Source: Candidatus Omnitrophota bacterium
Lineage (GTDB): Bacteria > Omnitrophota > Gorgyraeia > Gygaellales > Profunditerraquicolaceae
Direction: 5' to 3'
Assembly (NCBI GenBank): GCA_028715785.1
Contig: JAQURC010000004.1
Coordinates: 21,885-85,884 of the forward strand
Length of the DNA: 64,000 nt
Shown: in pieces, positions 2,995 to 57,953 of the stretch
Layout of the letters: every line of letters starts with the position of its first letter
Numbering within the stretch: position 1 is the stretch's first letter
Position numbers and translations under genes: made by a program
Notes under the pieces: generated by a model
Told to the model about the DNA's origin: nothing
Database searches by the model: none
Seen by the model: only the letters and a program-made list of their open reading frames with translations

Positions 2995-3006
2995 AATAGG
3001 AATCTA

Positions 3007-3087
3007 GGGGACGGTCCTGTTTTTCTATACTTTGTAGCTGACGTTTAAACGTCAGCTACTCTGTGGATAACAAATAGAACCGTCCAC
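3007..3087. repeat. Palindromic intergenic repeat family R1, copy b. Central perfect palindrome at 3034-3059, DnaA-box consensus TGTGGATAA at 3062-3070.
   Basis: 64 nt identical to copy a. It lies between the kamA stop (3094) and the ychF-like start (2994). Confidence 0.85.
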
Positions 3088-3093
3088 TTTATT

Positions 3094-4281
3094 TTATTCC
3101 AGGTAGGTGTAAATCTTGCCCTTATAATTGCGCAGCACATATTTACCCTTGGCCTGGGAAAGGATATAATTTGGCCCCACAGGTATCTTTCCGCCGCCGC
3201 CGGGCCCGTCGATAACATAGGTCGGAACGGCGTAACCTGAAGTATGCCCGCGCAATTTCTCGATAATATTTATCCCCACGGCTACCGGGGTGCGGAAATG
3301 CTGTGTGCCCCTTACCGGGTCGCACTGATAAATATAATATGGCCTTACTCTCATTTGCAGAAGATCATGCATCAGGCGCTTCATAATAAACGGCCGGTCG
3401 TTGATGCCCTTAAGGAGCACCGACTGGCTGCCTAAAGGTATGCCGCTTTCAGAAAGCAAATCGCAGGCATTCTTGCAGCGCTTAGTAATCTCTTTGGGAT
3501 GATTAAAATGGATGCTCATCCAGATAGGAGAATATTTCTTGATCATATTTACCAGATTTTCGGTAACCCGCTGCGGTAAAGTTGCCGGGATACGCGTACC
3601 GATCCTCAACAATTCGACATGCGATATGTCGCGGATCTTGGCAATCAGGGATTCCAATGCCTCATCCTCTAAGGTAAGCGGATCCCCTCCGGAAATCAAT
3701 ACATCCCTGATCTTACGGTTAGCTTTAATATACTCTATGGCCGCATCGAATTTAGTTTCGGGGTTTGTTTCTTTTTCTTCATGATCACCCACGAGGCGCC
3801 GCCGGGTGCAATGCCGGCAATACATCGCGCAATGCTCCGTAGCCAATAAGAGGACCCTGTCCGGATAGCGGTGCACCAGATGCGGCGCCGGAGAATCCCG
3901 GTCTTCAGCGCAAGGATCGGCCATTTCGTGCGGGGAAATCGAGAATTCATCGCCGACCGGTACAGACTGCCTGCGGATGGGGCAATCCGGATCTTCGGTA
4001 TCAATCAGGCTTGCCCAATAAGGAGTAACGGCCATGGCCAACCTTCCCTTGGCTTTATCAATTCCTTTTTCCTCCTGGGGAGTAAGTTTAATGATCTGGG
4101 TCAATTCTTCCTTGGTGCGTATCCTGTGTTTAAGCTGCCAATGCCAATCCTCCCAATCCAACGGGTTGACATCCTTAAAGAGCGGGATCTGCTGATAATC
4201 GCGCCAACGCCTCGGAGGCCGCGGCATAACCGGCGTTTCAATTTGTGTTTTTTGGTTTTCTGAACCTTCGGGGTTACTCAA
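3094..4281 (-). CDS. kamA: Lysine 2,3-aminomutase family radical-SAM enzyme (KamA/EpmB-like).
   Basis: Radical SAM cluster motif CAMYCRHCTRRR, then ISGGDPL and the KamA-family C-terminal region. The ORF carries a roughly 50-aa N-terminal extension. Its start overlaps the stop of the upstream ATP-grasp gene by 4 nt. Confidence 0.85.
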   Translation of the reverse strand: MSNPEGSENQKTQIETPVMPRPPRRWRDYQQIPLFKDVNPLDWEDWHWQLKHRIRTKEELTQIIKLTPQEEKGIDKAKGRLAMAVTPYWASLIDTEDPDCPIRRQSVPVGDEFSISPHEMADPCAEDRDSPAPHLVHRYPDRVLLLATEHCAMYCRHCTRRRLVGDHEEKETNPETKFDAAIEYIKANRKIRDVLISGGDPLTLEDEALESLIAKIRDISHVELLRIGTRIPATLPQRVTENLVNMIKKYSPIWMSIHFNHPKEITKRCKNACDLLSESGIPLGSQSVLLKGINDRPFIMKRLMHDLLQMRVRPYYIYQCDPVRGTQHFRTPVAVGINIIEKLRGHTSGYAVPTYVIDGPGGGGKIPVGPNYILSQAKGKYVLRNYKGKIYTYLE

Positions 4282-23275: not shown

Positions 23276-24570
23276 TAGTCTCTCGGCCAGAACTGCTCGA
23301 TAATCGAAAGTTTTATCCCGGTTTCTTCGGGAGAAAAACAATCCGCCAAGATTTGCCAGCCCAAATCCAGGGCTTTTTCCAGGGGGATATTTACCTTAAG
23401 CGACATCATCTTCTCTTCAAAAAACAAGCCGTATTTAAGCAATTTCTTGTCCCAGGCGCTCATCTGAAACCCCATTGACTGCTTCTCCAGGGTTTGGCGG
23501 TAATCGGCAAAAAGCTGGATCATGGTATCCATAATTGTGCGGTGGTCAGGGCGGGTTTTGCCATTTACCTGCTGTTTTAAGCGGCTCAATGACCCAAACG
23601 GCTCGATAACCGCGGATTTCAAGTAAAATTGGCCTTCGGTGATATAACCCGTATTATCCGGGACCGGATGGGTAACATCGTCTCCGGGCATGGTCGTAGC
23701 CGCAAGAATGGTAATTGAGCCTGCCCCTTCAAAATCAACCGCTTTTTCATACCGTGCAGCCAGTTGGCTGTAAAGATCCCCGGGGTAGCCGCGGTTAGAA
23801 GGGACCTGCTCCATGGTAATCGAAATTTCTTTCAAGGAATCGGCAAAATTAGTCATATCGGTTAACAAAACCAACACCCTTTTGCCTTTTAAAGCGAAAT
23901 CCTCGGCCACGGCTAAGCTAATATCCGGCACAAGTAAACACTCAACGGTGGGGTCAGACGCAGTGTGGATAAAAAATACGCAGCGGGAAAGGGCTCCGTG
24001 GGCGTTTAATGTTTCCCGAAAGAAAAGAAAGTCGTCGTATTTTAAGCCCATGCCGCCTAAAATAATAATATCCACCTCCGCCTGGATGGCAATGCGCGCC
24101 AAAAGTTCATTATAGGGCTCTCCGGCGATTGAAAAAACAGGGAGTTTTTGCGATTCTACCAGCGAATTAAAAACATCAATCATCGGAATACCGGTGCGGA
24201 TAATTTTATTGGGAATAATCCTCTTGACCGGATTTACGGAAGGAGCGCCGATAGCCGTTAGGTTCTCAGAAAGTATTGGCCCGCGGTCCAGGGGCAGGCC
24301 GCTGCCGTTAAATATGCGGCCCAATAGATTTTCTCCGGTTGCCACGCGCATCGGATGGCCCAAGAACCTTACCTTGTCTTGCGTTGATATCCCGCGGCTG
24401 CCGGCAAAAACCTGTAAAGATACTTTTGTCGAATCGATGCGGATAACCTGGGCTAAAGAAACGCTCCGGCCGCAGGTAATCTGGGCGATATCCAGGTACC
24501 CCACCCCCTGGGCCTCCACGGTAATCACATCCCCGGCGATTTGAATAATATTAGTGTAGGCTTTTTGCAT
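23275..24570 (-). CDS. atpB: V/A-type ATPase subunit B (non-catalytic).
   Basis: A/B-family alpha-beta fold without an intact P-loop: [18 protein letters not shown]. 431 aa. Confidence 0.85.
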
Positions 24571-29056: not shown

Positions 29057-29847
29057 ATCAACTCCTGGCTTAAAAAAACCGGGCCGTCCTTACAAACTCT
29101 TTGGTAACCGTCTTTAGTAGAGACAACGCAGCCTAAACAAGCCCCGATCCCGCAGGCCATATGCTCCTCTAAAGAAAGCTGCGCATTAATTTTATTTTCC
29201 CGGGCAATTTCACTTACCGCCTTTAACATCGCGCGCGGCCCGCAGGTATAGATGACCGATGACCGGTGACCGGTGACCGATAGCTGCTGTTTTAACAAAT
29301 CTGTAACTTTGCCTCTAAACCCAACTGAGCCGTCGTCGGTAGCCAACCTCACGGTGCATCCCAAAGCCTTAAACTCTTGCGCGCAAAGAACCTGCTTTTT
29401 TGTCTTGGCTCCAATTAATATAATGGTGTCATTGCCAGCCCCGGAGGGGCGAAGCAATCTTTGCGCAAGAAAAACCAGCGGGGCAACCCCCATGCCGCCG
29501 GCAACTAAGATATTTTTTCCTGCTTTTGCTTTAATTGCCCCCCTGTAATCAAACCCATTACCCAGCGGGCCGATAATATCCAGAAGCTCACCGGGTTTTC
29601 TTTGGGACAAAACCTGCGTGCCTGCTCCGACAACTTCATAAAAAAGCTTAACTTTTCTGCCCTTTACCCTATGGACGCTGATCGGCCTTCTTAATAACGG
29701 CTCAAGCCCATTGTTAACTTTAATATTCACGAATTGTCCCGGTAAGGCATTTTTGGCAATTACGCCTGATTCAAATTCTAAATGCCAATAATTACCACTG
29801 AATCTTTTATTGGAGATTATCTTGGTTTTTATCTGCGCTATTTTCAT
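29050..29847 (-). CDS. pyrK: Dihydroorotate dehydrogenase electron-transfer subunit (FAD / 2Fe-2S).
   Basis: Ferredoxin-reductase-like fold, C-terminal Cys cluster ACGIGACLGCVV. Confidence 0.8.
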   Translation of the reverse strand: MKIAQIKTKIISNKRFSGNYWHLEFESGVIAKNALPGQFVNIKVNNGLEPLLRRPISVHRVKGRKVKLFYEVVGAGTQVLSQRKPGELLDIIGPLGNGFDYRGAIKAKAGKNILVAGGMGVAPLVFLAQRLLRPSGAGNDTIILIGAKTKKQVLCAQEFKALGCTVRLATDDGSVGFRGKVTDLLKQQLSVTGHRSSVIYTCGPRAMLKAVSEIARENKINAQLSLEEHMACGIGACLGCVVSTKDGYQRVCKDGPVFLSQELIW

Positions 29848-39795: not shown

Positions 39796-42228
39796 TTATT
39801 CGTTTTCTTCGGCAATGACCGGGGCAACGCAGGAAACCCGGTCTTTGTCCTGCAACTTAATCAAGCGCACGCCTTGGGATGAACGGCCGGTTTCACGGAT
39901 ATCTTTGATCGCGCAGCGTAAAAATATCCCGTTCTGGGTAATAACCATGAGTTCATCTTTATCATTTACGGTTTTTAAATTTACCGCATGGCCATTCTTA
40001 TCCGTAACCTTGATATTAATCACCCCTTTGCCGCCGCGGCTGGTTAACCGGTATTCATCGATGGTCGTGCGTTTTGCAAACCCTAACTCCGTAACCGTTA
40101 AGATCGTTGAAGCCTTTTGCGGGACCACCATATCGATAACTTCATCTTTTTTGGACAGAGATATCGCCCGCACCCCATGGGCGCCCCGGCCCATTTCGCG
40201 CACCTTATCCTCGGAAAACCTGATTGCCTTGCCCTGTTTGGTCCCGATAAGCAATTCCTGTTTTCCGTCGGTCATCTCCACGCCGATTAACACATCGTCC
40301 TTGTCTAAAGTAATCCCGATAATCCCGCCTTTGCGCGGGTTACCGTAAGCTTCAAGTTTAGTTTTTTTGATTTGGCCTAATTTAGTGACCATGACTAAAT
40401 ATTTATCCGCGGAAAATTCTTTTACCGGAATAGTCGAGCTGACCTTGGCCGACTGCTCCATTTGCACAAGATTAATAATCGCCTTGCCTTTAGATATGCG
40501 GCTGGCCTGAGGAATTTCATAAACCTTCAGCCAGTGCACCTGCCCTTTATCGGTAAAAATCAACAAGTAATCTTTGGTGGAAGCGACAAAAAGATGCTCG
40601 CTAAAATCCTCTTCTTTTAATTCCGCTCCGGTTGCCCCGGTGCCGCCGCGTTTTTGCTTACGGTAGGCGCTTACCGGCAGGCGCTTAATATAACCGCTAT
40701 GGCTGATAGTTACAACCACGTCCTCTTCGGCAATTAAATCCTCGACCTCCAGATCTTCGGCTTCCCCGACAATATCCGTGCGGCGGCTGTCGCCATATTT
40801 CTTCTTTAATTCTTCCAGTTCTTCTTTAATGATCGCTTCGATCTTTTTTAGTGAGCCGAGGATCGCCCGGCATTCTTCGATTTTCTTTAAAAGTTCCGCG
40901 TACTCGGCGTCAATTTTATCGCGCTCAAGAGCGGTCAGGCGCTGCAGCTGCATTTCTAGAATTGCCTGGGATTGAATCTCAGAGAGCTCAAACTCTTTCA
41001 TTAAATTTAATTTGGCGCTCTCTACGCTTTTGGAGGTCTTGATAACCCTGATAATCCGGTCGATAAATTTAAGCGCGATTTTCAAGCCTTCTAAAATATG
41101 CGCGCGTTTTAAAGCTTTGTCTAACTCAAACTGCGTGCGCCTGCGGATAACTACTTTGCGGTGCTCGATATAACAATCCAACACCTGGCGCAAACTTAAA
41201 ACCTTGGGACGGTTATCAACTAAGGCTAACATAATAATACCAAAGGTGTTTTCCAGCTGAGTATGCTTAAAAAGCTGGTTTAAAACAATCTGAGACTCGG
41301 TGTCGCGCTTAAGCTCAACGACAATGCGCATGCCTTCTTTATCCGATTCATCGCGAATATCGGAAATGCCTTCGATCTTTTTCTCATCAACTAAACCGGC
41401 GATTGACTCGATCAGGGCTGACTTTTGCACCTGATAGGGAATCTCGGTAAAAATAATCAAGTCTTTGCCGTTCTTCTGGTGCTCCACAGTGGCCTTGGCC
41501 CGCACTACAAGCCTGCCTCTTCCTGTAGTATACGCATCCTTAATTCCACCCTTGCCGCAAATTAAACCGCCGGTGGGGAAATCCGGCCCCTTAATATAGT
41601 GCATCAAATCTTTAATTTCCGCTTCGGGATGGTCAAGGATATGAATAATCGCGTCGCAAACTTCGTTTAAATTATGCGGCGGAATATTGGTGGCCATGCC
41701 TACGGCAATGCCGCTTGAACCGTTAACCAAAAGGTTGGGCAGGGTCGCCGGTAACAACAACGGCTCCTTTAAGGAAGAATCGAAGTTGGGCCCAAAATTT
41801 ACGGTTTCTTTTTCAATATCATCCAACATTTCATCGCTGACTGCTGCCAGGCGGGCCTCGGTATAACGCATCGCCGCGGCGGCGTCACCGTCCACTGATC
41901 CAAAGTTTCCCTGGCCGTCAACTAAAGGGTAACGCAAAGAAAAATCCTGCGCCATCCTGACCAGCGTGTCGTAAATCGCCACGTCTCCGTGCGGATGGTA
42001 CTTACCCATGGTTTCACCGACGATACGGGCGCATTTTTTGTAGGGCTTGGAATGTTCCAGGTTAAGTTCGCGCATGGCGTAAAGGATGCGCCGGTGCACG
42101 GGCTTTAAGCCATCGCGGACATCCGGCAGGGCCCGGCCGACAATTACGCTCATGGCGTAATTTAAATAGGAGTCCTTGACCTCATCCTCGATATAAACCT
42201 GAATTATTTTGTCGTTGCGCGTATACAT
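39796..42228 (-). CDS. gyrA: DNA gyrase subunit A.
   Basis: Active-site Tyr region AAMRYTE, the QRDR-like segment and C-terminal beta-pinwheel repeats. 810 aa. Confidence 0.9.
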
Positions 42229-42230
42229 AA

Positions 42231-44672
<2,442 letters not shown>

Positions 44673-44957
44673 TTAAATTTCTCCGATACGGAAAATTATA
44701 TTTTTTAATCCCGGGTTTTCTTTTTTTAACTTACCCAGCAGCTCTTCTTTCTTTAAACTTAAAATATACAGCCAAGAGGAAGAATCCACGCTTAAACCCA
44801 AAACACCCTTGCTGAAATATTTAACTTTTATATGCCCCAACTCTTTCTTTGTCAAGGCTTTTTTTAACCACTGCTGCGGCTGGGCATCCGCCAAAACACC
44901 TTTTTTGGCGCTTAAGCCCCGCATAAGTTCATCCAGCGTATTTTTTAAAAGTTCCAT
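44673..44957 (-). CDS. DUF721 (DciA-like) protein.
   Basis: 94 aa. SSSWLYILSLKKEELLGKL matches the DUF721 C-terminal pattern. It sits between dnaN and gyrB, in the usual recF position. Confidence 0.55.
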   Translation of the reverse strand: MELLKNTLDELMRGLSAKKGVLADAQPQQWLKKALTKKELGHIKVKYFSKGVLGLSVDSSSWLYILSLKKEELLGKLKKENPGLKNIIFRIGEI

Positions 44958-44961
44958 ATTA

Positions 44962-46056
44962 CTAGTTAAGGCGCATGGGTAAAACTATGTAAACATAACC
45001 GCTGATCCGGATAACCCCGGGTTTTTCTGTATCCGTTAACTCTAAACCAATTACTTCTTCGTTCAAATTCTTCAAAACATCCATTAAATATACCGGGTTA
45101 AAACCAATCACCAGCTCCCTGCCCTGATATTCTACCGCCAATTCTTCATGAAACTCGCCGACATCGGGAGTAGACTTGGAAATTACCAGTTTATTCTTAA
45201 AAACCTCGAATTTTACCGCCTGATAATCCGGCGTTGCCAAAAGCGCGGCTCTTTTTATCGCCAATAAAAACTGGTTACGCTGCACCTTCATTTTATTTTC
45301 AGATACCGCGGGAACAACTTGTTTGTAATCGGGAAATTCCCCTTCGATTAAACGAGATACAACCGCCACGCCGCCTAAATCGAACAAGGCCTGATTACTG
45401 CTAATCACCAAAGATAATTCTCCCTCATCTTTCAGGTTACGGTTTAATTCCTGTATTGTTTTAATCGGGACAACCATGCTTACTTCAGCTTCGGGCTCGG
45501 CTGTGGTTAGTTTTCTCTCCGCAACCGCCAATCTCTTGCCATCGGTAGCCACCAAGGTTAACACCCCTTTACTAATCTTAAAAAGAATACCGTTTAAAAC
45601 ATAGCGGGTTTCATCAAAAGACACCGCAAATGCGGTTAACGATAATATTTCTTTTAAAACCCCTTGATTAATTTTAATAGCTTTCTTGTCTTTGAACTCA
45701 GGTAGTTTTGGAAACTCTTCTTTGGCCAATCCCATAATCTTAAATTGGCACATATCCGAATCAACGAGAACCTGATTGTTTTTTTTGGTGCCAACATTAA
45801 TAATATCCGAAGGGAACTCTTTAATTATATCGCTAAACCTCTTAGCCGGAATCGTGATTGCTCCCGGTTCCTGCATATCCACAGGGATTACACAGGTTAT
45901 CCCGATATCTAAATCCGTTGCTGTTAATTTTACCATCCCTAACTGGACATCAATTAAGATATTAGAAAGGATGGGTAATGCGGATTTGGTGGTAATTATG
46001 TTTTGTACGGCTTGAATTGCGTTAACCAGGTTTGTTTTTTCGACTTTAAATTTCAT
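44962..46056 (-). CDS. dnaN: DNA polymerase III beta sliding clamp.
   Basis: MKFKVEKTNLVNAIQAVQNIITTKSALPILSNILI, three-domain beta clamp. 364 aa. Confidence 0.9.
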   Translation of the reverse strand: MKFKVEKTNLVNAIQAVQNIITTKSALPILSNILIDVQLGMVKLTATDLDIGITCVIPVDMQEPGAITIPAKRFSDIIKEFPSDIINVGTKKNNQVLVDSDMCQFKIMGLAKEEFPKLPEFKDKKAIKINQGVLKEILSLTAFAVSFDETRYVLNGILFKISKGVLTLVATDGKRLAVAERKLTTAEPEAEVSMVVPIKTIQELNRNLKDEGELSLVISSNQALFDLGGVAVVSRLIEGEFPDYKQVVPAVSENKMKVQRNQFLLAIKRAALLATPDYQAVKFEVFKNKLVISKSTPDVGEFHEELAVEYQGRELVIGFNPVYLMDVLKNLNEEVIGLELTDTEKPGVIRISGYVYIVLPMRLN

Positions 46057-46197
46057 TTTAGGCTCCCCTTTTATTTATATATATTTAAAAACTTAAAATA
46101 ACAGTAGTCATAAAGGGCCCGCATGTTTGTTTACAAAGACTTAACTTGTTGCAATATGTCTAATTATAACAAATATTGTAATCTAATAACCTGGGGA

Positions 46198-47535
46198 TCA
46201 CTGTTTAATAACTTGAATAATTTTTTCCACCCGGGTCTTTAATTCCGGGTTACGGTGTATGTCTTCCTTGAGTTTATTATAAGAATGTAAAACTGTTGTG
46301 TGGTCCTTGCCGCCAAAAAGCTCTCCAATCTCCGGCAGAGACAGATCAGTCAACTCCCTGCTTAGATACATCGCGATTTGTCTTGGGAACACGACTTGTT
46401 TATTGCGCCGCTTGGTTTTAAGGTCTTGCAGGGAAATCCCGAATTCTTCAACCACGCAGCGCTGGATAAAATCCACCGTGATTAATTTTGTCGGCTCCTT
46501 GAGCAGGTCTTTTAAAACATCTTTAGTTAATTGCAGGGTAATCGGGGCCTCCTCCAGTAAAGAATAAGCAATGGTCCTGACCAAAGCCCCTTCTAGTTCG
46601 CGGATGTTAGTCTTGATTAATTGGGCGATAAAAAAAATTACTTCATCGGGGACATTAACCGGTTCGCGCTCAATTTTTTTCTTAAGGATGGCCACGCGGG
46701 TTTCTAAATCCGGAGGCTGGATATCGGTGGCCAGCCCCCAGCCGAACCGTGAAACCAGCCTTTCCTGTAAATTGGTAATTTCTTTGGGGGGCCGGTCCGA
46801 AGAAAACACGATCTGTTTGTGCGCATCATATAAAGTATTAAAAGTGTGAAAAAATTCTTCCTGGGTCGATTCCTTTCCGGCGATAAAGTGGATATCGTCG
46901 ATAACCAAAACATCGAGATTGCGGTATTTTTGGCGGAAGGCCGCGGTGGAACGGTGGACGATAGCGTCGATCAGTTCGTTGGTAAATTTTTCACTTGAGA
47001 CATAGCATATTTTTACGCCCGCTGGATTACTGTTTTTTATTTGATGGCAGATCGCCTGGATCAGGTGGGTTTTGCCCAGCCCCACCCCGCCGTAAATAAA
47101 TAGCGGGTTATATGTTTTGGCCGGTGAATTGGCCACTGCCAGCGAATAAGCGTGCGCATGCCGGTTGGACGGACCCACCACAAAATTTTCAAATGTATAA
47201 CGCGAATTAAGATTGATAAATCCGGCAGCCGGAGCGGTTTTAATATTTGCTTCGGGATAAGAATGAACAGCGCTTAAATCTTCCTGCACACTGCTAACAA
47301 CCAGCCTTACTAACAGATTATCCAGTCCTTTATGTTTTAAGGTTTCCAGAATAAGGTTGAGATAATGTTTTTCTACCCAATCTTTGAAAAACTGATCCGG
47401 CGCCTCCAGGTTGATACTTTGGTTATCCTGGATAGAAAGCCTCAATGGCGCTATCCAGGTAGCGTAGATAGTTTCTCCTAAGCTGGCCTTTAAATCTCTT
47501 TGCGTTTCTTCCCAATTTTTAGTAAGCTCGAACAT
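46198..47535 (-). CDS. dnaA: Chromosomal replication initiator DnaA.
   Basis: AAA+ Walker A GGVGLGKTHL, sensor motifs and the C-terminal DnaA-box-binding domain with RDHTTV. Confidence 0.9.
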   Translation of the reverse strand: MFELTKNWEETQRDLKASLGETIYATWIAPLRLSIQDNQSINLEAPDQFFKDWVEKHYLNLILETLKHKGLDNLLVRLVVSSVQEDLSAVHSYPEANIKTAPAAGFINLNSRYTFENFVVGPSNRHAHAYSLAVANSPAKTYNPLFIYGGVGLGKTHLIQAICHQIKNSNPAGVKICYVSSEKFTNELIDAIVHRSTAAFRQKYRNLDVLVIDDIHFIAGKESTQEEFFHTFNTLYDAHKQIVFSSDRPPKEITNLQERLVSRFGWGLATDIQPPDLETRVAILKKKIEREPVNVPDEVIFFIAQLIKTNIRELEGALVRTIAYSLLEEAPITLQLTKDVLKDLLKEPTKLITVDFIQRCVVEEFGISLQDLKTKRRNKQVVFPRQIAMYLSRELTDLSLPEIGELFGGKDHTTVLHSYNKLKEDIHRNPELKTRVEKIIQVIKQ

Positions 47536-47842
47536 GATTTTCTGACGGGGATCTACAGAGTTAACAGTTTATGCACAACTTGCATAAATCTGTGGATAAA
47601 ACAGGCGACCCGATTTTCTCTAAACAGAGTTATTATAACAGAGAGCAAACTCCTTGCAAGAAAAAAAGATAAACGTGAGTTATTATACAACAATATGTTG
47701 AAGCGTCAATAAAAAACTTGACCTCCAAATAAATCTATGTTACAATTCACAAAAATCAAGAAGATCGCTTTCATAAATTGCGGCTGATTTTCCAAGCCCC
47801 GTGTTTTCCATGAAAACAGGGGGCAAAAAAAGGAGATCCTGA
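47536..47842. other. Putative oriC in the dnaA-rpmH intergenic spacer, which also holds the divergent promoters. A consensus DnaA box TGTGGATAA lies at 47591-47599 and a 1-mismatch box TTATGCACA at 47569-47577. AT-rich stretches flank them.
   Basis: Gene orientation flips exactly here. A perfect 9-mer DnaA box is present, and the spacer lies between dnaA and rpmH as in many bacteria. Confidence 0.55.
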
Positions 47843-47980
47843 ATGAAAAAAAATTTAAAGACACCCACAAATATTGTCGGTAAAAAACGCCACGGGTTCC
47901 GCAGTAAAATGGCTTCTAAATCCGGACGTAAACTTTTGGCCCGTCGACGGAGCAAGGGCAGAAAACGACTTTGCATTTAA
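47843..47980 (+). CDS. rpmH: 50S ribosomal protein L34.
   Basis: [45 protein letters not shown], with SD AGGAG 7 nt upstream. 45 aa, below the ORF-track cutoff. Confidence 0.9.
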
Positions 47981-48195
47981 AAGTAAACCGCCCGGTGCTT
48001 GCGTTAATAGCGCTATACCAGGGATATGTAAGGCCGGCTATTCCGGCATGTTGCCGTTTTGAACCCAGCTGTTCCGAGTACGCAAAACAGGCAATTTTAA
48101 AATACGGATTAACTAAAGGAGTATTTAAGGGGCTAATCAGGATATTGCGCTGCCATCCTTTTTCCGGGCGGTCGGGTTATGACCCCTTAATATAA
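47971..48195 (+). CDS. yidD: Membrane protein insertion efficiency factor YidD.
   Basis: [57 protein letters not shown]. The ORF as drawn begins at TTG and overlaps the rpmH end; the true start may be the downstream GTG. Confidence 0.8.
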
Positions 48196-48199
48196 AACT

Positions 48200-49729
48200 A
48201 TGGAAAAACGCTTAGTTTTAGCTATTGGTTTGTCGCTTTTAGTATTATTGAGTTGGTCAGCCTTGATGCCTAAACCGCAACCAATTGATAATAAAGGAGT
48301 TACCGCGCCAGGTTCGCAGTTACAAACATTGCCGCCGGGCAGCTCTCCTGTTCTTCAGCCCACAATTGCCACTTCACCTCTTACGGATGTTATAAAAGAG
48401 ACGGTAAAATTTACCCAAGATAAACGCGAAATCATTTTTAACCCGGAGAGAGGTGCTATTTTAGAAGTGATTTTTAAGAATAATCTCGAGCACCGCCTGC
48501 CGCTTAAAATCGGTTTTCTGAGCGATAATAACCTTGTCTTTAAACAACAAAGCATGACGGGGGAGAGCATTACCTTTGTCCATGAAGATCAAAATAGGCG
48601 GATTATCAAGAAATTTATTATTCCTAACAATAGTTACGCCATAGAGTTAACAATTAAGGTTCAAAATTTATCCTCCTCTCCTTTAGTGCTAAATCCGCAA
48701 TTAGTTTTGGGCCGCCTGGATTTATCCGCCAAAAATCCGCAAGCGCGCTATCAAGACGTGCTTATCGGTGGAAAGGAAAAGACGGTTCATCTTTCGGCAG
48801 GAAAAGATTCCAGCAGTCAGAATGTCCAATTTGTGGGCTTGCGCGATCAGTATTTTTGCGCCATTGTTGAACCTGTTGATGTAGCAGCTGGTGCGTATGT
48901 TAAAAAAATTAACCCACAAGAATCCGAAATTGGATTAGTGACAAATGAACTAACCTTAAAACCTGGAACTCAGATTGGACATTCATATCGTGTTTACTTG
49001 GGGCCTCAAGATTTAAATATATTAAATAGTATTAATCCAGAATGGACAGCAATTATTTATTTTGGTACATTTGATTTTATTGCGCAGTTGCTATTACAAC
49101 TGCTTGGATTCTTCTATGGCTTGGTTCACAATTGGGGCTGGGCGATAATTATTTTAAGCATCGCGGTTTATCTCCTGTTATTTCCTCTATCACTTAAGCA
49201 AATGCGTTCGATGAAAGAGATGCAGGTTTTGCAGCCTAAAATCGAGGCTATGCGCAAGGAGTTTAAAGACAATCCGCAAAGATTAAATAAGGAAATAATG
49301 CAACTTTATAAGGAACATAAAGTTAACCCTCTTAGCGGTTGCCTGCCGCTTTTATTGCAAATGCCCATATTTTTTGCCCTTTATCAGGCATTGATCCGTT
49401 CAGTAGCTTTAAGAGGGGCGCATTTTTGGTGGATTACGGACCTATCTTCACCGGATAAGCTTTTTGTTTTCAAAAATTCGATACCTTTTTTAGGCAATCA
49501 GTTAAATATCCTTCCAATTCTAATGGCTATTGGGATGTATGTGCAACAGAAGATATCTATGGGAAAGGCGGTTGGAGAAGCTGCTCAGCAACAGAAGATA
49601 ATGTCCATTATTATGCCGATCATGTTTGGAGTGATTTTCTATCAAATGCCATCGGGGTTAGTGCTTTATTGGTTTGTAAATAGCATATTGATGTTGGGCT
49701 ACCAATTTCGTATTAATAGTCAAAAATGA
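48200..49729 (+). CDS. yidC: Membrane protein insertase YidC.
   Basis: N-terminal TM, a large periplasmic domain and the C-terminal 60-kDa IMP core with 5 TMs. 509 aa. Confidence 0.9.
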   Translation: MEKRLVLAIGLSLLVLLSWSALMPKPQPIDNKGVTAPGSQLQTLPPGSSPVLQPTIATSPLTDVIKETVKFTQDKREIIFNPERGAILEVIFKNNLEHRLPLKIGFLSDNNLVFKQQSMTGESITFVHEDQNRRIIKKFIIPNNSYAIELTIKVQNLSSSPLVLNPQLVLGRLDLSAKNPQARYQDVLIGGKEKTVHLSAGKDSSSQNVQFVGLRDQYFCAIVEPVDVAAGAYVKKINPQESEIGLVTNELTLKPGTQIGHSYRVYLGPQDLNILNSINPEWTAIIYFGTFDFIAQLLLQLLGFFYGLVHNWGWAIIILSIAVYLLLFPLSLKQMRSMKEMQVLQPKIEAMRKEFKDNPQRLNKEIMQLYKEHKVNPLSGCLPLLLQMPIFFALYQALIRSVALRGAHFWWITDLSSPDKLFVFKNSIPFLGNQLNILPILMAIGMYVQQKISMGKAVGEAAQQQKIMSIIMPIMFGVIFYQMPSGLVLYWFVNSILMLGYQFRINSQK

Positions 49730-49926
49730 AAAAAGCAAAATACGTGGAATCTGAAGGTAAAACCATGGAAGAGGCGATTGAAAAGGCCCTAAAAGCATTA
49801 AAATTGCCTCGCAGCCAGGTTAAAATCGAGAGTCTGTCCGAAGAGAAAAAAGGCCTTTTTGGTATGCCCGGAGCTAAGCCGGCAAAAGTACGCGTAAGTG
49901 TGATTTCGAGCAAAGAAAACACTTGA
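49726..49926 (+). CDS. Jag/KhpB N-terminal-domain-only protein.
   Basis: EGKTMEEAIEKALKALKLPRSQVKIESLSEEKKGLFGMPGAKPAKVRV matches the Jag_N domain. No KH or R3H domains follow. Confidence 0.6.
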   Translation: MKKAKYVESEGKTMEEAIEKALKALKLPRSQVKIESLSEEKKGLFGMPGAKPAKVRVSVISSKENT

Positions 49927-50006
49927 CAACTGTTTTTGTTCTGAGATAATTGATTTAGTTGAAAGATATGTTCCGTGTGGAACATATTATAACTATAATA
50001 ATATCA

Positions 50007-50798
50007 ATGGGTAAGATAATTACAATCTGCAACCAGAAAGGCGGGGTAGGAAAAACTACCACTTCGATTAACCTCGCGGCATATCTGGCGATGGCCGGAA
50101 AGAAGGTTATGCTCATTGATTTAGATCCTCAGGCCAATGCTACCAGCGGTATAGGAATAAACAAGCACGACATTCAAAAAAGCACTTATCATATTTTACT
50201 TGAAGAAGCAAAACTCGCCGATATTTTACAAAAAACCGCAATTGATAATTTAGTATTAGCTCCTTCTAATTTAGATTTGACCGGCGCAGAAGTAGAACTG
50301 GTCGGGGCATTGGGACGGGAATATAGGTTAAAGAGGGCGCTGCAAATTGAAAAAAATAATTATGATTTTATGATTATCGATTCCCCGCCTTCTTTAGGAC
50401 TGCTGACGATTAATGGATTATGCGCCGCTGACTCCGTAATCATTCCTGTCCAATGTGAATATTATGCCTTAGAAGGATTAACGCAACTACATAATACTAT
50501 TAGGCTTGTGAAAGAAAACCTTAATCCTTCTCTAAGTGTGGAAGGGGTGCTTTTAACCATGGCAGATTTTCGCACTAACCTGACCAAGGAAGTTATTCAG
50601 GAAGCGCGCGCTCATTTTAAAGATAAAGTTTATAGCACGGTTATCCCCAGGAATATTCGGCTTACCGAGGCTCCGAGTTTTGGCAAACCCATTATTTTAT
50701 ATGATAGCAATTCTCTGGGGGCGCAGAAGTACGAAGAGCTGAGTAAAGAAATTTTGGGTTCACCAGTAAATTCACCAATTCCAACACCCCGCGCTTAG
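50007..50798 (+). CDS. parA: Chromosome partitioning ATPase ParA (Soj).
   Basis: Deviant Walker A KGGVGKTT. The start is chosen at MGKIITI (50007). The track ORF begins earlier, at 49959. Confidence 0.85.
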   Translation: MGKIITICNQKGGVGKTTTSINLAAYLAMAGKKVMLIDLDPQANATSGIGINKHDIQKSTYHILLEEAKLADILQKTAIDNLVLAPSNLDLTGAEVELVGALGREYRLKRALQIEKNNYDFMIIDSPPSLGLLTINGLCAADSVIIPVQCEYYALEGLTQLHNTIRLVKENLNPSLSVEGVLLTMADFRTNLTKEVIQEARAHFKDKVYSTVIPRNIRLTEAPSFGKPIILYDSNSLGAQKYEELSKEILGSPVNSPIPTPRA

Positions 50799-50828
50799 AA
50801 GGTGTTGCGCGGGTGTGCCCTTGTGGGC
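50783..50828. repeat. GC-rich hairpin repeat family R2, copy a. It overlaps the last codons and stop of parA and ends 8 nt before the parB SD.
   Basis: AACACCCCGCGCTTAGAAGGTGTTGCGCGGGTGTGCCCTTGTGGGC is 44/46 identical to 57908-57953. A 10-bp GC stem with one bulge is followed by a GCCC-TTGT-GGGC minihairpin. Confidence 0.8.
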
Positions 50829-50844
50829 AAAAAGGAGCGGTTTA

Positions 50845-51702
50845 ATGGAGAGAAGAGCTTTAGGAAAAGGCCTGGCAGCGTTAATTCCCGAAAAAGCAGC
50901 TGATACCACGATACATAAAGAAGAAATTATTTATGTCCAGTTTGGACAAATAAAACCAAATCCATTTCAACCGCGGGAAGATTTTGATCCGCAAAGCATT
51001 GAAGAGCTGGCCCAGTCGATTAAAGAGAAAGGCGTTATTCAGCCGCTTTTAGTCAGGCAAAGAGGGGATAATTATGAATTAATTGCCGGAGAAAGAAGGT
51101 TACGTGCAGCTAACTCCTTGGGGCTCAAAGAGATACCAGTTATTGTACGCGATGTAAGCGACCAGGACTCTCTGGAATTAGCCTTGATTGAAAATATCCA
51201 AAGAGAAGGATTAAACCCCATTGAAGAAGCGCATGCCTATCAACACCTGATCGATAAATTCCAGGTCAGCCAGGAGAAGATCAGCGAGGCTTTAGGCAAG
51301 GCCAGGGTTTCGATTACCAATACCCTGCGTTTGCTTAAGCTCCCGCATGAAATTCAGGAGGAGATGAAAAAAGGCCGCATTAGTTTTGCCCATGGCCGCG
51401 CCCTGCTTGAGGTTGAAGACGCAAACGATCAGCGCAGGCTCACCCAGGATATTATTTCTAAAGGGCTTTCAGTGCGCGAACTGGAGAACCTGATTAAAAG
51501 CAAACGGCCCAAATCAATCAAAAGAAGCATCGGGCCAGGCCAGCGTGAACCGATAGTGGCGGTTTTGGAAGAACAACTGCAGCATGCCTTGGCCACCAAA
51601 GTCAGGATCAGCAAGAGAAAGAAACGCGGGCATATCAATATCGAGTTTTATTCACAGGAAGATTTGGAGCGCATAGTCAATGTCATTAAAGGAGGAAAAT
51701 AG
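50845..51702 (+). CDS. parB: Chromosome partitioning protein ParB (Spo0J).
   Basis: ParB box GERRLRA and an HTH. The start is chosen at MERRALGKG (50845), preceded by AAAAGGAG. The track ORF starts inside the R2 repeat, at 50815. Confidence 0.85.
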   Translation: MERRALGKGLAALIPEKAADTTIHKEEIIYVQFGQIKPNPFQPREDFDPQSIEELAQSIKEKGVIQPLLVRQRGDNYELIAGERRLRAANSLGLKEIPVIVRDVSDQDSLELALIENIQREGLNPIEEAHAYQHLIDKFQVSQEKISEALGKARVSITNTLRLLKLPHEIQEEMKKGRISFAHGRALLEVEDANDQRRLTQDIISKGLSVRELENLIKSKRPKSIKRSIGPGQREPIVAVLEEQLQHALATKVRISKRKKRGHINIEFYSQEDLERIVNVIKGGK

Positions 51703-57902: not shown

Positions 57903-57907
57903 ATTCT

Positions 57908-57953
57908 AACACCCCGCGCTTATAAGGAGTTGCGCGGGTGTGCCCTTGTGGGC
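57908..57953. repeat. GC-rich hairpin repeat family R2, copy b, between rpmI and the rplT SD.
   Basis: AACACCCCGCGCTTATAAGGAGTTGCGCGGGTGTGCCCTTGTGGGC. It ends 2 nt before the AGGAGA SD of rplT. Confidence 0.8.

Follow-up and report, generated by a model that had tools for sequence, protein, structure and literature searches.

Where does replication start in a stretch of chromosome in which every gene points away from one spacer, when that spacer holds a single perfect DnaA box? A sequence-only reading of the 64-kb stretch of Omnitrophota DNA analysed here (the window) raised this question for the 307-bp spacer between dnaA and rpmH (47536-47842) and proposed a bipartite or minimal oriC. To our knowledge, replication origins in uncultivated phyla have been assigned by automatic prediction alone, and a literature search on Omnitrophota replication origins found nothing. 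We asked which of the two forms fits the locus and where its DNA is likely to be unwound.

Gene content and strand polarity of the dnaA locus

The DnaA encoded in the window is closest to those of MAGs labelled Candidatus Omnitrophota or Omnitrophica. Among GTDB representative genomes, the best DnaA matches are 72% (L001) and 69% (L002) identical, and a large protein collection contains more than 100 DnaA relatives at 82-93% identity together with one 100% match. The gene order follows the classical synteny parAB-jag-yidC-yidD-rpmH / dnaA-dnaN-dciA-gyrBA, and was identical in nine close relatives whose loci were fetched via their DnaA proteins. On the minus strand are gyrA (39796-42228), gyrB (42231-44672), dciA (44673-44957; DUF721, Pfam PF05258, 27.7 bits against a cut-off of 24), dnaN (44962-46056) and dnaA (46198-47535; TIGR00362, 558.7 bits). 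The plus strand carries rpmH (47843-47980), yidD (47971-48195), yidC (48200-49729), a Jag_N ORF (49726-49926), parA (49959-50798) and parB (50815-51702); genes for which no model is named were assigned with NCBIfam/Pfam. dciA occupies the same place in the loci of the relatives, and DciA is the probable helicase-loading partner. Two further gaps were considered as origin candidates and rejected, since the one between gyrB and dnaN is filled by dciA and the one between yidC and parA by the Jag_N ORF. Rfam at gathering thresholds returned tRNAs only, with no RNA family in the dnaA-rpmH or the dnaA-dnaN spacer.

The complete switch in polarity described earlier was borne out by the ORF list and the tRNAs: all genes left of 47535 lie on the minus strand (~44 complete protein genes and 4 tRNAs), and all genes right of 47843 on the plus strand (~19-20 protein genes and 3 tRNAs). 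The original estimate of about 75 genes is roughly right, as we counted ~70. At four places with overlapping ORFs of ambiguous strand, a Pfam domain was found only in the ORF on the expected strand, so the strand switch is complete. The site thus adjoins dnaA inside a conserved rpmH/dnaA/dnaN/gyrB neighbourhood, and synteny, the complete strand switch and the conserved boxes described below mark the region very probably as oriC, in agreement with the sequence-only reading.

A cumulative GC-skew analysis had been suggested as a check of the origin. Within the 64-kb window, cumulative G-C traces a V whose floor is flat over ~45.75-48.75 kb, and its absolute minimum is at 45943. The minimum is therefore near dnaA, but it is not independent of gene orientation. 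The GC skew of the coding strand is +0.11 at all sites versus about -0.05, near zero, at four-fold degenerate sites, showing that the skew of the window stems from the amino-acid and codon composition of the coding strand. Since all genes are co-oriented and the skew comes from their coding strand, the V-shape restates gene orientation and provides no independent evidence on replication. This is relevant to genome scans, in which GC skew gives no independent support to an origin where every gene is co-oriented. Placement of the origin via per-gene skew, which asks whether dnaA lies on the lagging strand, was uninformative: over all sites, only one of 63 genes has a lower skew than dnaA, but at four-fold sites dnaA is unexceptional.

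The dnaA-rpmH spacer contains promoters and a putative dnaA operator

The 307-bp spacer was aligned with L001, L002 and nine close relatives, and a promoter scan was added; in all, the comparison drew on 14 related genomes. It contains one perfect DnaA box and one box with a single mismatch, just as the sequence-only reading had found. Box A is the perfect box, TTATCCACA on the dnaA-sense strand (47591-47599, minus strand); box B, TTATGCACA, has one mismatch (47569-47577, plus strand) and is convergent with box A at a distance of 13 bp. Shuffle means scaled to 307 bp are ~0.002 perfect boxes and ~0.06 boxes with at most one mismatch, far below the 1 and 2 observed, and the box pair is thus not due to chance. 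A DnaA-box scan that tolerates mismatches had also been proposed; at two mismatches, it added only TGATCCCCA, which overlaps the dnaA stop codon, across both spacers that flank dnaA.

The boxes are conserved. Box A is perfect in 10/10 genus-level sequences, while the promoter-side sequence next to it is variable in the same alignment. Box B has one mismatch throughout these genus-level sequences, being TTATGCACA or TTATACACA in all close relatives, and is a perfect TTATCCACA in L001. A degenerate third box, box C (GAGTTAACA, 47558-47566, plus strand), lies in tandem with box B, 2 bp apart and 11 bp from start to start. Its position is conserved among relatives, and in L002 the homologous position reads TAATCCACA, with one mismatch. 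Together, the three boxes span 42 bp (47599-47558) immediately before the dnaA start codon, a block which reads TTATCCACA GATTTATGCAAGT TGTGCATAA AC TGTTAACTC.

Most of the remaining conservation corresponds to promoters. dnaA is preceded by P2 (TTGCAA-16 nt-TATAAT with an extended -10 TG; 47632-47659, minus strand; scan 10/12 with TG), which is kept in close relatives, and by P1 (TTGACG-16 nt-TATAAT; 47682-47709, minus strand; scan 11/12), which is kept in close relatives and in L001. Back to back with P1 is a conserved rpmH promoter (TTGACC-17 nt-TACAAT; 47718-47746, plus strand; scan 10/12 with TG). Boxes A-C are all downstream of both P1 and P2, inside the dnaA 5'UTR, a placement that would be expected for autoregulation of dnaA. 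In the rpmH 5'UTR, a hairpin was read from the sequence (47796-47824, plus strand) that is absent or different in relatives; it is a lineage-specific insertion and probably not part of the origin.

In the alignment, the promoters and the box block appear as conserved islands split by variable DNA. With respect to A+T content, the best 30-mer of the spacer reaches 83% and the best 40-mer 78%, so that they rank only within the highest 0.8% and 1.6% of positions in the window, respectively. No trio array was found beside boxes A, B or C in either orientation, using both the trio matrix and the strict rule described below. The suggestion that this spacer is a self-contained minimal origin is therefore not supported, as it consists mostly of three strong promoters and an operator, lacks a trio array and is moderate in A+T. 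Beyond promoters and operator it contains variable linkers and the hairpin insert, which leaves nothing to serve as an unwinding element.

The dnaA-dnaN spacer contains a candidate unwinding element

The dnaN-dnaA spacer (46057-46197) had been pointed out as AT-rich and as a possible second part of oriC. Indeed, its 141 bp have 71.6% A+T compared to 54.9% for the window. In dnaA sense, it starts with a conserved CCCAGGTTATTA right after the dnaA stop codon, followed by ~45 variable bases. Next comes a conserved 9-mer, then a linker of fixed length, a region with 3-nt periodicity and an AT-rich block that is nearly invariant and continues into the dnaN ribosome-binding site. Among ten close sequences, the mean pairwise column identity is 0.82 for the 9-mer, 0.39 for the linker, 0.69 for the triplets, 0.88 for the AT-rich block and 0.51 for the variable part; that of the ribosome-binding region (0.70) is below the 0.88 of the AT-rich block.

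The 9-mer is a degenerate DnaA box, TTGTAAACA, with three mismatches (46128-46136, minus strand), which forms a conserved island and is oriented towards dnaN. Across 12 aligned sequences, its bases TT.T..ACA do not vary, and they correspond to positions 1, 2, 4, 7, 8 and 9 of the consensus, TTATCCACA. At the place homologous to this 9-mer, L003 carries TTATCCACA, L001 and L005 carry TTTTCCACA, and L085 carries TTATACACA. The adjoining linker of 11 nt (46117-46127, minus strand) is variable in sequence and conserved in length.

Beyond the linker lies a DnaA-trio-like array (46096-46116, plus strand), which reads GGA AAT ACT GAT GAC AAT AAA in 3'->5' direction; the plus strand is the proposed strand for single-strand binding by DnaA. 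On the dnaA-sense strand, the array is CCT TTA TGA CTA CTG TTA TTT, preceded by TTGTAAACA and 11 nt. The conserved middle A is present in five of the seven triplets. Triplet 3 is broken in all close relatives, and the 3-nt register is always kept. Both strands of the window were scanned with a trio matrix built from 107 triplets of 20 published arrays. Of ~128,000 window positions, only one outscored the best 18-mer of the array (46113->46096), and none on the minus strand did. In the loci of L002, L003 and L005 (11-13 kb), the homologous site came first; it was unremarkable in L001 (rank 18) and L004 (rank 32). In the 6.3-kb loci of close relatives, which are not independent observations, its ranks were 2, 2, 2, 3, 3, 6, 10, 10 and 26.

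A candidate AT-rich unwinding element (46069-46112) links the trio array to the dnaN ribosome-binding site and partly overlaps each of them. It includes the most AT-rich 30-mer (46069-46098) and 40-mer (46069-46108) of the 64-kb window as well as its least stable 41-mer by nearest-neighbour energy (46072-46112). The AT-rich DNA-unwinding element that is sought in an oriC is thus present, and 46069-46112 is the top of the 64-kb window in this respect. A promoter scan of the dnaA-dnaN spacer detected no promoter-like site. The unwinding site is thus likely located outside 47536-47842, in the 141-bp dnaA-dnaN spacer, and the comparative evidence favours the bipartite reading in which this spacer is the unwinding part.

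The element deviates from strict unwinding-module rules

We compared the element with the strict published rule for the basal unwinding system (BUS; Richardson 2016, Pelliciari 2021), which calls for a box with at most two mismatches that faces the trios, and for at least three consecutive 3'-NAN-5' triplets starting no more than 16 bp away. Over 45900-47900, this rule returned no acceptable module. The box TTGTAAACA is correctly oriented and departs from the consensus at three positions, one of them position 6, where A replaces C. The middle A is missing from triplets 1 and 3, so that the uninterrupted run of four triplets begins 20 bp from the box. The AT-rich region that the rule expects beyond the trios is present.

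Homologous sites in other loci are closer to the rule. The homologous box has 0-2 mismatches in L003, L001, L005, L085, L002, L083, L084, L086 and L087, and, as read from the aligned triplets, three distant relatives (L002, L003 and L005) satisfy the trio rule at this site. The alignment indicates that the window element is homologous to these rule-satisfying sites and has the same geometry. It is seen only through its matrix score and homology, and we do not count it as a verified unwinding module. The published optimum for the spacing between box and trios is 10-13 bp (PMC8287927), and B. subtilis tolerates a deletion of 3 bp but not of 1 bp (PMC6669920). The 3-nt register kept around the broken triplet fits this tolerance of a 3-bp, and not a 1-bp, deletion.

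Comparison with known origins

In B. subtilis, the unwinding module is located between dnaA and dnaN (PMC6669920) and consists of TTATCCACA, AATCCACA, GGCC and CTA CTA TTA CTT CTA CTA, with a first box-trio spacing of 12 bp (PMC8287927, Table S2). The window resembles B. subtilis incC in having a box, 11-12 nt, a trinucleotide array, an AT-rich block and dnaN, equal in order and orientation. It also resembles the bipartite oriC (incAB upstream of dnaA, incC with the BUS on the dnaN side) as a whole, in that boxes upstream of dnaA overlap its promoter region. In contrast, incC has seven boxes including the perfect box 6, whereas the window has one box with three mismatches; the upstream part has three boxes versus a large cluster in B. 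subtilis; and the trio array of the window has a conserved broken third triplet, unlike that of B. subtilis. The helicase-loading partner also differs, being likely DciA in the window, where its gene was seen, and DnaD/DnaB/DnaI in B. subtilis.

The predicted modules of Bdellovibrio bacteriovorus and E. coli share with the window a single box, in place of a tandem pair, before the trios and few boxes overall (PMC8287927, Table S2). However, their boxes have at most two mismatches and their trios are uninterrupted, neither of which is the case in the window. A precedent for a discontinuous trio array is found in Thermotoga maritima, whose published array is interrupted (GATAATAAA-T-GATGAT...; PMC8287927, Table S2). 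There, the break is a single base and the box is a 12-mer of another consensus, while in the window a whole triplet is broken and the register is kept. The upstream boxes can be compared with the dnaA operators of E. coli and B. subtilis, which likewise have high-affinity boxes that appear positioned to block dnaA transcription. In the window, two convergent boxes and a third in tandem make up the putative operator, which lies in the 5'UTR, downstream of both promoters.

The initiator and a model for origin function

We next compared the initiator. The window DnaA aligns with B. subtilis DnaA (PDB 8BTG) at E=1e-137, including domain IV and the single-strand-binding (ISM) regions. The two are nearly identical through SSEKFTNE(L/F)I, the site of the single-strand-binding residue I190 of B. 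subtilis DnaA, and through the DNA-binding helix of domain IV, FPRQIAMYLSRE...DHTTV. These near-identical DNA-binding regions give no sign of an altered box specificity, and the scarcity of boxes is therefore a property of the DNA and not of the initiator.

Overall, we consider it probable that the region is a reduced, box-poor chromosomal oriC of the Bacillus-type bipartite design. As in bipartite origins of the B. subtilis/H. pylori type, dnaA separates two subregions, boxes A-C (47558-47599) and the weak box at 46128-46136, ~1.45 kb apart; the second subregion is defined by this one weak box. It looks like a known bipartite design in reduced form and not like a new kind of origin. Of the two forms originally offered, the bipartite one is thus supported and the minimal 307-bp one is not, and the functional centre is probably outside 47536-47842.

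The anatomy, the conservation and the statistical rank of these elements allow us to infer how binding, looping and unwinding might proceed. In part 1 (47558-47599), DnaA bound to boxes A-C would repress transcription of dnaA, and the same boxes would serve the origin as its high-affinity store of DnaA. The unwinding module would be part 2 (46069-46136), made up of a low-affinity box, an 11-nt spacer, ~7 trio-like triplets and ~30-40 nt of near-pure A+T. ATP-DnaA is predicted to nucleate on the weak box, aided by part-1 DnaA that is looped across the 1.45-kb dnaA gene. Such looped delivery of DnaA from distal boxes is documented in B. subtilis (PMC6669920). The DnaA oligomer would then grow onto the trio strand, the plus strand of the window, and the AT-rich element would melt. 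Loading of DnaB may be helped by DciA, which is encoded two genes away. Unwinding in the dnaA-dnaN spacer would place the start of replication one gene left of the orientation switch. The rightward fork would then meet dnaA transcription head-on, which is also the case in B. subtilis.

Alternative explanations

Three other accounts place the unwinding site elsewhere. The 307-bp spacer could be the whole of a minimal oriC, with boxes A-C nucleating DnaA, the AT-rich promoter region unwinding, and the dnaA-dnaN spacer providing signals for dnaN only. It holds the only high-affinity boxes of the region, the gene strand switches exactly there, and rpmH-dnaA spacers act as origins in some bacteria. 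Furthermore, unwinding in vitro can be achieved with as few as one or two boxes (PMC8287927). We nevertheless regard this account as unlikely, because three consensus-like promoters and an operator explain the conserved blocks of the spacer, its boxes sit in the dnaA 5'UTR with no trio run either way, and its AT-rich stretches are outranked by the dnaA-dnaN element at the top of the window. It is also conceivable that the features between dnaA and dnaN are a weak dnaN promoter and an AT-rich translation-initiation region, that the upstream boxes autoregulate dnaA only, and that unwinding takes place at an undefined site or through elements not recognised here. TTGTWA, ~15 nt and TATTA resemble a poor sigma-70 promoter, an AT-rich stretch before the ribosome-binding site is common, the strict unwinding-module rule fails in the window, and the trio ranks of several relatives are mediocre. 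On the other hand, the promoter scan was negative at this place and the putative -10 is without the invariant final T. Moreover, the 9-mer is conserved at DnaA-box positions and is a perfect or one-mismatch box in distant relatives, the 3-nt register is maintained along the array, and the AT-rich block is conserved above the ribosome-binding region (0.88 vs 0.70). These points make a purely expression-related role doubtful.

The origin might instead lie elsewhere on the chromosome, the polarity switch being a boundary between divergent clusters or the result of a rearrangement. The V-shaped skew is explained by coding-strand composition, our view covers 64 kb of the chromosome, and several dnaA loci of other phyla are without adjoining boxes, so that dnaA-distal origins may exist. 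However, ~70 consecutive genes pointing away from one point are hard to obtain without replication-driven selection, and the switch falls at dnaA/dnaN/gyrB and rpmH/yidC/parAB, where DnaA boxes are conserved and the DNA of the window is at its least stable. We therefore view a distant origin as very improbable. A further possibility retains the dnaA-dnaN spacer as the unwinding site and changes how it is activated. The module of this clade might have lost its canonical box, retaining only TTGTWMACA (mostly TTGTTAACA, with a GTTAAC core) and a fixed broken triplet, and initiation would then proceed wholly via DnaA looped from the operator in the dnaA 5'UTR, or via a lineage-specific factor that reads the variant site. 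We give this an outside chance. If initiation did rely on looped operator DnaA, autoregulation of dnaA would be hard-wired to origin firing.

Implications of a probable reduced bipartite origin

Returning to the reduced Bacillus-type origin that we favour, the sequence comparison suggests that the box/trio/AT-rich module of Firmicutes is also present between dnaA and dnaN in Omnitrophota. Its presence in this phylum would support the ancient age claimed for the module. It would also mean that the module can degenerate strongly and yet conserve its position, register and AT-rich element. With such degenerate modules, origin finders that count boxes could pick the wrong spacer.

Box numbers and distant DnaA boxes

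The box cluster of an oriC typically comprises at least three close matches to TTATCCACA. Here, two boxes with at most one mismatch flank dnaA, and further degenerate boxes around dnaA are recognisable by homology only. The number of boxes with at most one mismatch that flank dnaA is 2-5 in Omnitrophota loci, compared to a median of 6 (range 0-14) in 49 loci of other phyla. Low box number is thus a property of the Omnitrophota lineage.

The 64-kb window as a whole contains six perfect DnaA boxes versus 0.36 expected. Two of these, at 538-546 and 3062-3070, belong to the two copies of a 95-nt repeat, R1 (477-571 and 3001-3095; 93% identical), which is situated between co-directional genes and folds into a hairpin of -50 kcal/mol (z = -9.5). 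The sequence-only reading had drawn attention to these boxes, 44-47 kb away; they are indeed perfect, but no link to the origin was found. The core of R1 is absent from 89/89 fetched loci, and its DnaA boxes look incidental. Another perfect box (44491-44499) arises from the gyrB codons GTT GTG GAT AAC (V V D N) and likewise shows no connection to the origin. With two copies of R1 and a box formed by gyrB codons, the excess of perfect boxes in the window is partly trivial.

Gene content and strand composition around dnaA

Within the window's dnaN-dciA-gyrB cluster, dciA (DUF721; 44673-44957, minus strand) lies between dnaN and gyrB, and recF is absent. This arrangement suggests DciA-type helicase loading, and the origin may therefore be without the DnaD/DnaI-type recognition elements of Firmicutes. 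On the other side of dnaA, no rnpA, which encodes the RNase P protein, was found between rpmH and yidD/yidC, either in the window (47980-48200) or at the corresponding place in its close relatives. The usual rpmH-rnpA-yidC order is kept in the more distant relative L005 (5159-5539), and a tblastn search with its RnpA as query gave no credible match in either the 64 kb of the window or the loci of the close relatives. The gene may have been relocated or lost in the window's clade.

We also calculated coding-strand skews per gene over the whole window. GC skew was +0.11 at all sites versus about -0.05 at four-fold degenerate sites, where the T>A skew was about +0.2. The G>C mutational signal classically seen on leading strands seems to be missing, while gene co-orientation across the 64 kb is 100%.

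The window's gyrB encodes 813 aa and has no Intein_splicing domain, unlike that of the close relative L082 (GCA_028712255.1; 5361-6335), whose 1247-aa product carries this domain. A perfect DnaA box at 44491-44499, within the window's gyrB, is made up of the codons GTT GTG GAT AAC (V V D N), which shows that coding sequence can yield perfect DnaA boxes as by-products.

Small elements beside rpmH and dnaA

The 5'UTR of rpmH holds a stable hairpin, GCCCCGTGTTTTC CAT GAAAACAGGGGGC (47796-47824), just upstream of the ribosome-binding site. It is limited to the window's genome; at the corresponding position the relatives either lack an insert or carry unrelated ones. Directly 3' of the dnaA stop codon, the motif CCCAGGTTATTA (46184-46195, minus strand) is kept in the close relatives at 0.80 identity, with no obvious reason for its conservation.

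Repeats in the window

R1 is a 95-nt direct repeat whose two copies (477-571 and 3001-3095) share 93% identity. Its fold is a long nested hairpin (-50.4 kcal/mol, z = -9.5) centred on a perfect 26-nt palindrome; an internal loop holds a perfect DnaA box. Between the copies lies a two-gene unit; judging from its C-terminus, the first gene looks purH-like. R1 could represent either an element of the REP/MITE kind or a bidirectional terminator. Its core did not occur in any of the 89 loci fetched for comparison. A further perfect DnaA box is part of GTCAGACGCAGTGTGGATAAAAAA (23953-23976), which lies within a minus-strand ORF and shows 79% similarity to the arm of R1 that bears the box; the likeness may be due to chance.

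A second repeat family consists of 51-nt copies at 50778-50828 and 57903-57953 (94% identity), which are GC-rich, have internal complementarity and are located at gene ends on the plus-strand side of the window. Finally, a 37-nt inverted repeat pair (2252-2288 and 29426-29462; 89% complementary) contains the GC-rich hairpin GCCCCTTCGGGGC. The pair probably represents a further intergenic element of the dispersed kind, or else a terminator.
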